A DNA stretch of 32,000 nucleotides. It comes from an uncultured archaeon (GTDB taxonomy: Archaea > Asgardarchaeota > Thorarchaeia > Thorarchaeales > Thorarchaeaceae). The translations under genes and the position numbers were made by a program. The notes beneath the pieces were generated by a model that made no database searches, was not told where the DNA came from, and worked only from the letters and a program-made list of their open reading frames with translations. Positions 9,723 to 20,822 of this stretch are shown here, piece by piece. Positions within the stretch are counted from its first letter, which is position 1, and each line of letters opens with the position of its first letter. Where the stretch lies: assembly GCA_964354495.1 (NCBI GenBank), contig CAYHAA010000003.1, positions 179,754-211,753 on the forward strand, written 5' to 3'.

Positions 9723-12410
9723 CTACTCCATCCTTCCTTTACCAAGGACTTTCTCGATTGCTATGTCAATGTTCACTGATCGCCCGTGATCTGACTTACT
9801 TGGATCAACCCCGTCGTCGCCAAAACGGAATTGGACAATCCTTCCAGGTGCTGTTCGCACAGTACCATCCGTTTCTACCTTGAGGTCTTGAAGGGCTGTC
9901 ACGAGACGCCTTTGCATGTAACCTGAAGTTGAGGTTCGTACTGCTGTGTCAACAAGCCCCTCGCGGCCTCCTGCTGCATGGAACCAATATTCGATTGGAT
10001 TCAAGCCGCTCTTGTAGCTGGACTTGACAAACCCGTGAGCTCGTGCACCAAGATCGCCTCTCTCGAAATGCGGTAGAGTTCTGCCCACATACCCTCTAGT
10101 AATACGTTCACCTCGTACAGCCTGCTGCCCCACAACAGCTGCCATCTGTGATAGATTGAGCCTTGACCCTCTTGCACCGGTCTGTGCCATGATGACTGCT
10201 GTGTTCTCTAGACCCAGATGTTCTCCAGCCACCTCACCAGCAGAGTCTCGCGCTTCAGCTAGAGTTGCCTTGATTCTCTGTTCGAGAGTCTCCAAGAGAG
10301 TCTGACCAGGATTCGGGTCGAACTCTCCTCTCTTATAGGTCTCGATGAGCTGATCCACTTTATTGTCAGCCTCAGAGAGAATCTTCTCTATTCTCTGTGA
10401 TGCAGCACGTGGCAACGTGACATCATTCAAGCCCATAGAGAATCCTCTGTCAGTGATAAGGCGGACTAGAAGTTTTCCGACCGAGTCCAGGAACACCCTG
10501 GCTACAGTTGATCCCTTCTCCTTGATTATTCTGTGAAAAAGCGAATCTGGCTCTCCAGCGCCGAACGCCTTTTCATCTACAACACCAAATATCAGTTTGC
10601 CGTCGCGTATGACATCAAAGGAATCAAAGTCACAGTCTTCATGTTTACAGACAGCGCACTTCCTACATATGTTCGCTTTGAACGAGATATTGATTCCTTC
10701 AGGAATGAATATGCTGAAGATTTGTTTGCCAGTCCATAGTTCTATGGGAGCTTTGATAGCTGGCTCAGGAAGACTCTGTGCTCGATTCGCAGCGGCCAGC
10801 AACTGGTTCACTCGGTCTTTCGTGTAAACACTTGACTTGCGAGTCAGCAGAAATGCTGCTGAGATGTAGTCTTGGAGTGCTCCAATGATTGGTCCACCGT
10901 ATCTTGGTGAGAGTATCTGTTCCTGTACTCGCATGAGGACTCTTGCTTCTGCGCGCGCCTCCTCGGACTGGGGGACATGCAGATTCATTTCGTCACCATC
11001 AAAGTCCGCATTGTAAGGTGGGCATACGTACAGTGACAGCCGGAAGGTTCGGTATGGCATGACCCTGACCTCATGTGCCATGATGGACATCCTGTGAAGA
11101 GATGGCTGCCTGTTGAATAGTACAATATCACCGTCAGACAAGTGCCGCTCTACGATAAAACCGGGCTCGATTGTGTCAGCAATGATGGATCGGTCCTTAA
11201 CGAACCGAAGGTCCACCCTTCTGCCATCTGTTCGAATCAAGTAGTTACAAGCAGGATGTCTGTCAGGGCCTCGAATGACGAGCTCCTTCATCTCCGCAAT
11301 GTTCCATTCGGTCACACGTTCAGGAATAGTTAGAATCTTCGCAATCTGTTCAGGAACGCCCACCTCGTTCATGCCGAGGTTGGGGTCTGGAGAGATGACA
11401 GTACGTGCCGAGAAGTCTACACGCTTCCCGGAGAGGTTGGAACGGAATCTACCCTCCTTCCCCTTTAGCCTCTGGGCAAGTGTTCTCAGAGCCCTTCCTG
11501 ATCTATGCCGAGCAGGCGGAATACCACTCACGCCGTTATCAAAATAGGTTGTACAGTGGTACTGCAGAAGCTCCCAAAGATCTTCGACGATAAGTTGTGG
11601 AGCTCCGGCATCTAGATTCTCGCGAAGCCTCTGATTTATTCTGATGATGTCAATAAGCTTGTGGCTGAGGTCATCCTCGCTCCTGACTCCAGACTCGAGA
11701 GTTATAGATGGTCTCACAGTGACTGGAGGAACTGGAAGTACTGTCAGAATTGACCACTCAAGTCGCGCAGCTTCCGGATTGACGCCAAGTAGACGGTAGT
11801 CATCGTCTGAAACATTCTCAAGTCGTGCTCTGATATCAATAGGTGTGAGTCTCACAGATCCTGCCTCGCCGACTTCATAAATCGAGGTGGGTTTCTCCAG
11901 CTTGATCTTGAGCTGCGGTTCCTCGCAATGAGGACAGGTCTTCACCTTTGCAGCTCTCTTGAGAATCTCATTAGAGAGATTAGCAGTCTTCTGGCCCATA
12001 TCGGGGTATCTCCTGAACAGCTTCTGAAAATGATCAGTTTCCTCATCAGTCAGGAGAATTCTGTTGCACTCTCTGCATATGGCACGGAGGACTTTATGGA
12101 TGACCTTTGAATAGCCCTCGTGCATGATTGGTCGTGCGAGTTCTATGTGACCAAAGTGACCAGGACAATTGCCAACCCTATTTCCGCAGGTCTTGCAGCG
12201 TTGACCGGGATCGATCACGCCCAACTTGGGATCCATGATGCCGCTTTATAGAGAAACTGGGAAATCCAGATTCTAATCTATGGGGTAGCCGTCCTCGTCA
12301 TATGTGTCAGCTACGACGATTTGGGCAACAGACATCTTACGGATATCCTCGGGTGATAATAGTCCAAATTCAATTGAATCGATTTTCTTTGTAGTGAGAC
12401 CAGAGATCAT
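9723..12410 (-). CDS. rpoA1: RNA polymerase subunit Rpo1N (A'); two exons 12410-12276 and 12245-9723, 885 aa after removal of a 30-nt intron
   Basis: Exon 1 [45 protein letters not shown] joins in frame to [37 protein letters not shown]; SD AGGAGA upstream of 12410. Confidence 0.95.
12246..12275 (-). other. Putative archaeal bulge-helix-bulge intron in rpoA1 mRNA (30 nt, TAGAATCTGGATTTCCCAGTTTCTCTATAA)
   Basis: Central helix ATAG/CTAT, bulges ATT and AAA, inner stem AGAA-T-CTGG/CCAG-T-TTCT; cuts after the second base of each bulge equal the frame-restoring boundaries. Confidence 0.88.
12331..12344. repeat. att-like core, left copy (GACATCTTACGGAT)
   Basis: Longest identical stretch between the two rpoA1 5' copies; identical to 20743-20756. 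Confidence 0.75.
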
Positions 12411-12537
12411 TTAAGCCATCTCCTATTGAACTACCTCTTTGTATTTATCATGATACAGCATATTATCTAAAGTGAAGAAGTGTCAATGAACAATTCAAAT
12501 TTCGAGAGAGAATGATTATAACAGTTATGGTATGTCT

Positions 12538-12667
12538 GGCTCTGTGTGAAAAGTCAATGATAGCGTAATGATCAGAACAATTCGCGTCATATCATGTACG
12601 GATCCTACACTCATTATTCCTTTTCTGACCGTACCATTTCATAGTTGGTGACTTTTCACACAAAGCC
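12538..12667. mobile_element. 130-bp MITE with 19-bp TIRs and a 9-bp target-site duplication (IS5 family, IS903-like ends)
   Basis: GGTATGTCT|GGCTCTGTGTGAAAAGTCA ... TGACTTTTCACACAAAGCC|GGTATGTCT; TIRs match 18/19; TSD at 12529-12537 and 12668-12676. Confidence 0.88.
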
Positions 12668-12730
12668 GGTATGTCTTGGATGGTAACATAGAACGATGCA
12701 TTTTCTATTCAAATTCGAGCTAATCGGATT

Positions 12731-19870: not shown

Positions 19871-19874
19871 TACA

Positions 19875-20393
19875 ATGAAGAGAGCTGGTAGGTTATTGAT
19901 ATTTCTTGGTATTGCTGCTATACTCCTTTCTAGTCTTGGAAGTTATGCATACCGCGGGATGGATTATCGAGTTATTACAGAGAATGATCCATTTGTCTAT
20001 CTTTTTGAGATTGGTCAGGATGTTCATGTAAATGTAACTTTGGATCCTCATAGCATCGGAACGTTCAATATCTATTTCATGAGCTGGCAGGATGCCAATA
20101 AAACCATGGTTGAAAATAAAACAGCAGCTCCGATTACACCTATTTCCAGCTTCGAGAACATATCCTCTCTGCAAGAGAACCTGTATATCCCCGCTCCTGG
20201 AATATATGCACTATTGTTCACAACTGAATCAACAGAGCTGCAGATAATATGGGTGGAACTCTCATCTAATGGGATACAAACAAGAGTAATCAGCGGAGGT
20301 GTACTACTGGCTGGATTTGGTGCTGTACTGCTTGTTCTCTCAGCCATAAGGGAATACCGAACCAAGAGTTCATTTCGTGAGAAAGCGAAGTGA
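19875..20393 (+). CDS. Membrane-anchored protein (N- and C-terminal TM), last gene of the ABC operon
   Basis: SD GGAGG before ATG 19875; hydrophobic termini around a soluble domain. Confidence 0.75.
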   Translation: MKRAGRLLIFLGIAAILLSSLGSYAYRGMDYRVITENDPFVYLFEIGQDVHVNVTLDPHSIGTFNIYFMSWQDANKTMVENKTAAPITPISSFENISSLQENLYIPAPGIYALLFTTESTELQIIWVELSSNGIQTRVISGGVLLAGFGAVLLVLSAIREYRTKSSFREKAK

Positions 20394-20693
20394 GTCGTAT
20401 ACAGTACTTTAGGAAATCCAATTATAATATAGTCAGATAAAACAAAAATGGGTTTAGGATTCGGACACAGCACGATGCGAATTTGTCAAATCATTATCCT
20501 TTCATCGACTTTTTACACAGAGTCGGTAGGAAGATGAGTTTCGTTAGATAATTGAGAGCGTGTAACGAAGAAACTAACTCACTCGCCTGCCTTTCAATCG
20601 TGCTTTGTTGCTCTGTCCTATTAAGCCCTCTATCTAAATGGATGAAGTTCCAGTGAGAACTTAGTCTTTCCTATTTCAAATATTACGAAAGAG

Positions 20694-20822
20694 CTAAATA
20701 TGATCTTCATCATAGGTATCAGCTACGACTATTTGTGCAACGGACATCTTACGGATGTCTTCAGGCGACAATAGTCCGAACTCGATTGAGTCAATCTTCT
20801 TAGTGGTAAGGCCAGTGATCAT
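20694..20822 (-). pseudogene. rpoA1: Orphaned native 5' end of rpoA1 (40 homologous codons plus HI-stop, 42 aa)
   Basis: [42 protein letters not shown]; ATG directly follows the rpoB TAG. Confidence 0.92.
20743..20756. repeat. att-like core, right copy, within dyad GACATC-TTACG-GATGTC
   Basis: Identical to 12331-12344; perfect 6-bp inverted repeat at 20743-20759. Confidence 0.75.

Follow-up and report, generated by a model that had tools for sequence, protein, structure and literature searches.

Layout of the locus

In an uncultured archaeon of the Thorarchaeaceae (Asgardarchaeota), an island of accessory DNA at the rpoB-rpoA1 junction separates the first codons of rpoA1, which encodes the RNA polymerase subunit A', from the rest of the gene. 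By the window we mean the whole stretch of 32,000 nucleotides that was analysed (positions 179,754 to 211,753 of contig CAYHAA010000003.1, assembly GCA_964354495.1), and positions given without a contig name are those of the window. The genome carrying it (G000) is 97.7% complete and has rpoA1 as a single-copy gene. It was compared with a congener (G007), with a genome from another genus of the same family (G360) and with the loci L044-L047, which comprise 17 contigs from several samples. Read along the operon, the parts of the interrupted locus that concern rpoA1 itself are as follows; BHB stands for bulge-helix-bulge and ORF for open reading frame.

20823-24194, minus strand: intact rpoB, 1123 amino acids, its stop codon TAG abutting the ATG of the orphan (ORF list, translation and junction sequence)
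20703-20822, minus strand: native rpoA1 codons 1-40, the orphan (93% identical to the native copy of G012; rpoB tail continuous)
12411-12537, minus strand: right-end module with TTATAA box, leader, AGGAGAT Shine-Dalgarno site and an rpoB-tail remnant, EMA-stop (alignment of seven modules)
12276-12410, minus strand: replacement rpoA1 codons 1-45 (signs of purifying selection; nearest native copy 86.7% identical)
12246-12275, minus strand: predicted BHB intron of 30 nucleotides with in-frame TAG and TAA (absent in 20 of 20 aligned congeners; cut sites at the borders of the indel; covariation in eight alleles)
12243-12245, minus strand: Ser46 codon AGC, the last foreign letters, predicted partner of the Pro43 wobble base in the outer BHB helix
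9723-12242, minus strand: native remainder of rpoA1 from codon 47 onward (translation)

An earlier note on this DNA had reported that codons 1-40 of rpoA1 are present twice on the minus strand, at 20703-20822 and 12291-12410, and our analysis confirmed this. The two copies differ at 24 of 120 nucleotides, 23 of the differences being synonymous third-position changes and one a first-position change (T3S). The distal copy directly abuts the rpoB stop codon (TAG followed by ATG) and closes with HI-stop in an ORF of 42 amino acids (20694-20822); the native 5' end is stranded behind rpoB. The DNA between the copies has a low GC content of 0.35-0.42, versus 0.48-0.52 outside. The homology between the copies reaches about 14 nucleotides 5' of the ATG and includes the AGGAGAT Shine-Dalgarno site as well as the last rpoB codons (EMI-stop versus EMA-stop). 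However, the proximal copy does not read on into the full gene as had been stated, since the 30-nucleotide insert at 12246-12275 brings an in-frame TAG and TAA, and the longest rpoA1 ORF begins only at 12236 and encodes 837 amino acids.

Extent of the foreign DNA

The boundaries between native and foreign DNA were set by comparing G007 with the close empty-site relative G024, the flanks of which are 3-5% diverged. The G007 orphan (codons 1-40) differs from G024 at 2 of 120 nucleotides, the G007 replacement copy (codons 1-46) at 28 of 138, spread across positions 6-138, and the first 100 nucleotides outside each junction show two differences per side, being native from the first base. The distal copy is therefore native through all 120 nucleotides and the proximal copy foreign through all 138. 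Judged from this difference pattern, the foreign DNA starts directly behind codon 40 and extends through the Ser46 codon, and it is shown to occupy 12243-20702 (8460 bp) in place of native codons 41-46, the 18 nucleotides of which were lost at the target. Accordant with this, native kin encode Ser46 by TCG or TCA, versus AGC in the replacement copy of G000. The proposed position of the accessory DNA inside rpoA1 is thereby refined to the interval between codon 40 and codon 47.

With one exchange point behind codon 40 and the other behind codon 46, a single att core cannot account for both junctions, and a single conservative exchange using the same core at both does not fit. A crossover core inside the duplicated segment was rejected as well, because the differences between the proximal and the native copy cover the whole 138 nucleotides. 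The DNA beside codon 40 is unrelated among G000, G007, L044 and G360 (four genomes, four sequences), and no conserved left-end motif was found among the compared islands; hairpin ends like those of IS200/IS605 were rejected since the left ends of the islands are non-homologous. An island bounded by a transposon or insertion sequence was likewise rejected, given that the terminal inverted repeats (TIRs) present belong to a nested miniature inverted-repeat transposable element (MITE) and the target shows a loss of 18 nucleotides rather than a duplication.

A predicted intron in the replacement copy

The transcript of the 30-nucleotide insert and its borders is predicted to fold into a BHB structure with a central helix of four base pairs (AUAG/CUAU) and bulges of three nucleotides (AUU and AAA) on opposite strands, completed by an inner hairpin and an outer helix in which UACC pairs with GGUA. 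On the tRNA-Asp intron of the window we verified the rule that each bulge is cut behind its second base. Applied to the insert, this rule takes out exactly the 30 nucleotides that G000 has in excess of its relatives, and the product (...PIDSGIMDP...) has the length and the sequence found in the relatives. The predicted spliced mRNA would join ...CCCATAGAT to AGCGGCATC... (...ATAGAT to AGCGGC...). The chance of encountering the BHB geometry at a given pair of positions in G000 is 4e-4, and 8e-5 with the outer helix required.

Eight alleles of the intron could be compared. Their lower inner helix reads AGAA/UUCU, GAGA/UCUC, ACAG/CUGU, AUGG/CCAU or GAAA/UUCU, each of its four pairs occurring as two to four Watson-Crick pair types. 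In addition, the wobble base of Pro43 covaries in a compensatory manner with the codon family of Ser46 (CCC with AGC, CCG with UCG). The structure is not flawless, for three of the eight alleles have A.C or A.A as the outermost central-helix pair, and the inner helix of G360 contains one A.C. The insert is identical at 29 of 30 positions between G000 and G007, versus about 83% in the surrounding DNA, and G000 encodes two EndA paralogues (197 and 212 amino acids, in the regions C7:64948-65196 and C6:24745-25002) together with RtcB. Two further splicing schemes, the entire island as one giant BHB intron and trans-splicing from the orphan, were rejected on manual inspection: GAAG, the last four bases ahead of the end of the orphan, finds no complementary partner preceding codon 41 in the proximal copy, and codons 41-45 are missing from the orphan.

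The earlier note held that the island rescues rpoA1 by supplying a replacement 5' end. The island and its rescue module are real; however, the rescue is indirect, because the replacement copy holds a BHB intron with two stop codons and would become functional only after splicing of the RNA, which the structure and its covariation make very likely. If the 30 nucleotides stayed in the message, either RpoA1 would be made in two pieces, a 45-residue peptide and an 837-residue protein starting at Met49, or the locus would represent a dead gene, a pseudogene or an assembly error. An ATG located 10 nucleotides past the second stop codon would suit the former, and no evidence of splicing came from the RNA runs described below, which contain only intron-less genes of relatives. 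On the other hand, no Shine-Dalgarno site precedes this ATG, rpoA1 is an essential gene present in one copy, independent assemblies show the same locus, and it is hard to see an unspliced sequence in an insert that is conserved far above its surroundings and in which eight alleles keep the BHB structure by compensatory changes, down to a Ser46 codon family that matches the Pro43 wobble base. We therefore regard a gene left unspliced as most improbable.

Metatranscriptome runs X20, X25 and X26 yielded contigs that represent the intron-less rpoA1 of relatives, e.g. ...ATCGATTCGGGT followed by ATCATG, and that have no bearing on splicing or transcription in G000. An exact 23-nucleotide pattern of the intron hairpin had no match in JGI metagenome contigs and, among species genomes, matched only G007; a 27-nucleotide intron pattern with up to three mismatches matched only G000 and G007 among 400 genomes of the phylum.

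Crenarchaeota reportedly possess a BHB intron in the pre-mRNA of cbf5. Both are short BHB introns in a protein-coding mRNA removed by the tRNA-splicing machinery, a removal that is predicted in the present case. Unlike the cbf5 intron, the one described here lies in the RNA polymerase A' gene, belongs to the Asgard phylum and was found, within the family sample, only in the replacement module of an island. As far as the searchable literature shows, a BHB intron within a replacement module is unreported.

With regard to other introns of the window, two intron-bearing tRNA genes (24366-24471, minus strand, and 24843-24946, plus strand) are detected by Rfam and missed by ARAGORN, and one of the two introns sits at the junction of anticodon stem and variable loop.

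The right-end module

Upstream of the replacement copy lies a module, unique in the G000 genome, with a TTATAA box at 12516-12521 and an AGGAGAT Shine-Dalgarno site at 12418-12424. The last 125-145 nucleotides or so before the replacement start codon are homologous in G000, G007, L044 and G360 and also in L048, L049 and G366, and the TTATAA box is invariant in the seven aligned modules, which come from at least four lineages. Taking a transcription start about 25 nucleotides past the box (near 12490), the leader would comprise about 80 nucleotides; a comparable box (TTTAATA) is found in a tRNA promoter of the window, about 30 nucleotides ahead of the gene. As had been proposed, the insert brings its own start codon, along with a Shine-Dalgarno site and a TATA-like box that is conserved.

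The replacement copies of G000 and G007 differ at 22 of 138 nucleotides and in one amino acid, and by this measure the copy is under purifying selection. In DNA, the replacement copies share 83-87% identity with every sampled native copy and with one another, and their identity to native copies equals the spread among congeners. The suggestion of a recoded 5' end is therefore not borne out: the synonymous differences represent ordinary divergence between species and no designed recoding. Moreover, the module carries the N-terminal peptide of its host clade, namely MMASTTKK beside MMATTTKK in L044 and MISGLTTKK beside MITGLTTKK in G000. In these comparisons, the replacement copies resemble additional species of that clade.

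Occurrence in relatives

Relatives with an empty site are numerous. In an alignment of the rpoB-rpoA1 junction of 20 species of the same genus, rpoB and rpoA1 are contiguous and without the 30 nucleotides in all 20, and of the 77 genomes with a match in our rpoA1 survey of the family, 73 have a single uninterrupted rpoA1 frame of about 885 amino acids. The arrangement is thus not fixed across the lineage. Within the family sample, the intron occurs only together with the island (3 of 3 genomes with, 0 of 73 without).

A chimeric contig, which the earlier note had considered as a possible explanation, can be ruled out. An independent sediment metagenome (X5) contains a contig that is identical across 11500-12571 and a second contig that spans the distal (orphan) junction into rpoB; since X5 bridges both junctions and the same architecture is found in G007, L044-L047 and G360, the locus is not an assembly chimera. 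In G007, rpoB, the native codons 1-40, the island and the intron-bearing replacement copy running into rpoA1 follow each other, split over two contigs. L044-L047 and G360 show rpoB, an orphan of 42 to 46 amino acids, an island, a replacement copy with a 30-nucleotide insert and an rpoA1 ORF of 837 amino acids. The island of these loci measures 5.8 kb or is a different one; G360 is 94-95% identical to L044. A 45-residue peptide was also used to query a large protein collection, from which a length filter let only short fragments return. The query retrieved orphan-type peptides ending in ...YDED plus unrelated residues, in three contexts, as well as replacement-type peptides that run into an insert after GYPI[DE].

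Several loci depart from this scheme. G366 (L086, i.e. G366:C82, reverse strand, about 2885-3520) contains a miniature version in which the orphan is cut after codon 21 and is followed by an AT-rich spacer of 470 nucleotides with the TTATAA module and by a complete, intron-less replacement copy that is about 16% diverged. In L052 (440-500), three native rpoA1 codons (ATGATTACA) directly follow the rpoB stop codon, after which come a foreign rpoB-tail remnant, another Shine-Dalgarno site and then a replacement copy containing a 29-nucleotide insert; this arrangement is a cargo-free recombination scar. At the same codon, L050 and L051 have a 33-nucleotide insert, while their operon is otherwise native and shows no scar. 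L048 and L049 have a 29-nucleotide insert behind a spacer of 246 or 700 nucleotides, in which no convincing orphan remnants were found. L053 was rejected as a fourth orphan, for it proved to be an ordinary gene without the intron, frameshifted in a short contig.

Further observations concern the same genes in these relatives. In L048 (10880-10960) and L049 (10830-10920), a second short insert, which may be another mRNA intron, interrupts rpoA1 near residue 230; inteins are present in rpoB of both loci and in rpoA1 of L049. G341 has two full-length rpoA1 genes, on C143 and C26, that are 100% and 90% identical to the query peptide and probably reflect a mixed bin.

Mode of spread

We interpret the locus, with a probability of roughly 55%, as a displacement island of the Thorarchaeota that sits in the rpoB-rpoA1 junction, has no integrase and spreads by homology-anchored recombination. 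Of the features expected of displacement, a native-type orphan, a foreign-type working copy from a related lineage and the lack of a recombinase are seen. The island allele would have arisen in a related species and spread among relatives: DNA from an island-bearing relative would recombine in the conserved body of rpoA1 and push the resident gene end aside as an orphan, while in later transfers rpoB and the orphan would also act as homologous anchor. The end at codon 40 would be an illegitimate joint inherited from the founding event. The genes rpoA1-rpoA2 would now be transcribed from the module's own promoter, and the tRNA splicing endonuclease together with the RtcB ligase would render the mRNA translatable.

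That the promoter, the Shine-Dalgarno site and a complete 5' end are always present is explained if only those products survive which restore the essential gene, and the intron would travel with the island because the two lie only 135 nucleotides apart. Since the cargo cluster with the ABC genes is 92% identical between the islands of G000 and G007 and rpoB only 81%, the island appears to have moved between species.

The earlier note had compared the island with elements of the e14 and phage 21 type. Such an integration was not borne out, as none of the four islands encodes a recombinase domain and the junctions have no common core. In detail, Pfam finds only ABC domains in the G000 island and no recombinase in those of L044 and G360, and PF00589 (tyrosine recombinases) has no match in the whole G000 genome, not even one of the Xer type, with matches in 14 of 14 control genomes. 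Two genes of G000 encode resolvase-domain proteins of 201 amino acids; they are located on other contigs.

Several points nevertheless weigh against homology-anchored displacement. Orphan joints were found at codon 3 (L052), codon 21 (G366) and codon 40, and the last of these recurs in four genomes that break exactly after codon 40 and yet have unrelated adjoining DNA, which looks more like an active site-specific joint than like a single inherited illegitimate event. The flanks of G007 are native up to the junctions and contain no donor tract, although a divergent donor would be expected to leave tracts of its own type on import, unless these were removed by mismatch repair or later recombination. 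Within the family sample, intron and island occur together more strictly than simple linkage would demand. Finally, use of the module promoter and splicing are both predictions from the sequence.

Some of these points are better accounted for by a site-specific integrative element, the recombinase of which would act in trans, have been lost or belong to a novel family (possibly one of the unassigned ORFs), with a module that co-evolved to keep the host alive. The identical break at codon 40 in G000, G007, L044 and G360 despite unrelated adjoining DNA, the clean flanks on both sides in G007, the conservation of the right-end module across at least four lineages and an island identity above that of the host would all be expected of such an element. 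The lack of a recombinase domain in the islands and of a tyrosine recombinase in the genome, the missing common core together with the 18 lost nucleotides, the existence of other junctions at codons 3 and 21, and candidate gene-end duplications of the same geometry at other G000 genes (see below) speak against it, and we consider it possible, though unlikely.

The link between intron and island would also be explained by an insertion coupled to intron homing. An endonuclease would cut intron-less rpoA1 near codons 40-41, and an intron-bearing donor would serve as template for the repair. From the rpoA1 side, a single end would invade the donor, synthesis would proceed back through the intron, the donor's codons 1-46, the promoter and some cargo, and the new strand would at last be end-joined to the cut end at codon 40. 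This would account for a host break that stays in place while the end points on the donor side vary, for codons 41-46 having been converted, for the finding that intron and island strictly go together in the family sample and also for L052, where an intron-bearing allele with a foreign rpoB-tail remnant is free of cargo. However, a homing endonuclease gene was not found, no enzyme acting at the DNA level is known for the mobility of BHB mini-introns, G366 has a displaced 5' end without an intron, and L050 and L051 have the intron in an otherwise native, scarless operon. Homing therefore appears improbable as the cause of the insertion.

Displacement by homologous recombination need not be confined to rpoA1, and the idea that rpoA1 offers a special, universal target was not supported. 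A crude scan of G000, the hits of which are candidates judged by identity figures only, flagged 39 genes that have a copy of one of their ends close by on the same strand, many of these genes resembling tandem paralogues. At least 8 of the 39 show 85-97% amino acid but 77-89% nucleotide identity, and their geometry appears similar to that of rpoA1. Candidate gene-end copies of this kind concern C10:79712-81298 (ghost at 84362-84481), C10:102385-103434 (three to five tail copies), C14:30208-32985 and C3:115151-116488.

A broader proposal, which we regard as rather doubtful at present, is that Thorarchaeota generally capture cassettes at the ends of conserved genes without an integrase, that this capture has reached the RNA polymerase operon and that at rpoA1 it is tied to the BHB intron. 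In one version, the intron-less allele would be cleaved and one-ended repair would bring in promoter, cargo and intron together; in the other, the intron would protect the replacement allele from being converted back. If true, either version would mean that in the prokaryotes most closely related to eukaryotes genes flow, and introns enter protein genes, by a new route.

Comparison with known systems

In E. coli, prophage e14 and phage 21 integrate in icd. The island shares with them the position of an element within a housekeeping protein gene that is kept functional (here, if the intron is spliced), the presence of empty sites in relatives and the mostly synonymous differences between the displaced native end and the replacement. 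In contrast to e14 and phage 21, it is the 5' end that is replaced here, so that a promoter and a Shine-Dalgarno site are needed; moreover, there is no integrase and no common junction core, 18 target nucleotides are lost, the replacement has an RNA intron and the cargo is not a prophage.

The orphans of rhs and cdiA reflect a similar displacement at polymorphic-toxin loci. For the arrays of effector and immunity genes of the type VI secretion system in Vibrio cholerae, orphan modules have been traced to sequential displacement (PMC5361080). The toxin loci share with the present case that incoming DNA recombines in the conserved part of a resident gene and brings a new end plus cargo, that the old end remains nearby as an orphan, that no dedicated recombinase is needed and that arrays can accumulate. 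They differ in that variable 3' toxin tips are concerned and diversity itself is selected, whereas here the 5' end of an essential, conserved gene is exchanged, the operon is split, and starts of transcription and translation are required. By analogy, the rpoA1 case would work more like the orphan displacement at toxin loci than like e14 or phage 21.

Homology-facilitated illegitimate recombination, with one homologous anchor and one illegitimate joint, is described in naturally transformable bacteria and can likewise leave a partial duplicate with synonymous differences. To our knowledge, it has not been demonstrated in Asgard archaea, and the identical joint at codon 40 in four genomes requires either common descent or a further explanation.

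Our literature search found no paper on an rpoA1 island or an rpoA1 intron in Asgard archaea. The interest of the locus rests on its place in the RNA polymerase operon, on its host among the Asgard archaea, on its recurrence and on the link to an mRNA intron. In archaea, few gene orders are as conserved as the rpoH-rpoB-rpoA1-rpoA2 cluster; here it is split by accessory genes, and its largest subunit would depend on a foreign promoter and on splicing. Recurrence in at least four lineages of an Asgard class, together with common empty sites, indicates a living polymorphism that can be studied in natural populations, and the spread of an mRNA intron is linked to the movement of an island. The lack of an integrase and the candidate ghost ends at other genes point to a recombination-based gene acquisition in Asgard archaea that is undescribed in the searchable literature.

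Cargo and secondary insertions

Between the orphan and the right-end module, the island contains the following features.

20394-20702, no strand assigned: left-end island DNA including a solo TIR of the MITE family at 20506-20524 (nothing homologous to this DNA in the G007, L044 and G360 islands)
17201-20393, plus strand: cargo cluster, opposing the rpo genes (Pfam and NCBIfam)
19860-20393, plus strand: 177-residue membrane protein
19064-19870, plus strand: ABC-2 permease (Pfam/NCBIfam)
18159-19067, plus strand: DrrA-like ABC ATPase (Pfam/NCBIfam)
17201-17755, plus strand: 184-residue secreted protein
12731-16417, minus strand: ORF of 1228 amino acids (missing from the X5 variant and from L044)
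12538-12667, no strand assigned: nested MITE, 130 bp, with 19-nucleotide TIRs and a 9-bp duplication, GGTATGTCT (G007 lacks it at this point)

The cargo differs among the islands, the recurring item being an ABC-2 exporter cluster that consists of a DrrA-like ATPase, one or more permeases and small membrane or secreted proteins. The L044 island contains the same kinds of genes at 25-45% amino acid identity and in opposite orientation, i.e. co-directional with the rpo genes. For the 184- and 177-residue proteins, the 309-residue ORF of L044 and the ORFs of G360, no match was obtained in Pfam, NCBIfam or PADLOC.

The large ORF of 1228 amino acids has no match in Pfam, NCBIfam, PADLOC or Atlas and is present at full length only in G000 and G007, the G007 version having one TGA. 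The X5 variant skips 12588-17500 (joint 12587/17501) and hence lacks this ORF, which, judged from its absence there and in L044, is dispensable. A reading of the X5 joint as an island form lacking the large gene was rejected: both the MITE and the 184-residue ORF are cut there and its ends show no repeats, so it is a derived deletion.

The MITE is a secondary insertion just upstream of the module; a second copy lies at C1:355386-355515, and a 1-kb element with the same TIRs at C2:1807-2805. Finally, about 90 N-terminal residues of the 1228-residue ORF (approximately 26-114) recur at the N-termini of other ORFs of 650-930 amino acids in the genus, among them C18:6949-7182 of G000, and represent an unassigned shared domain.

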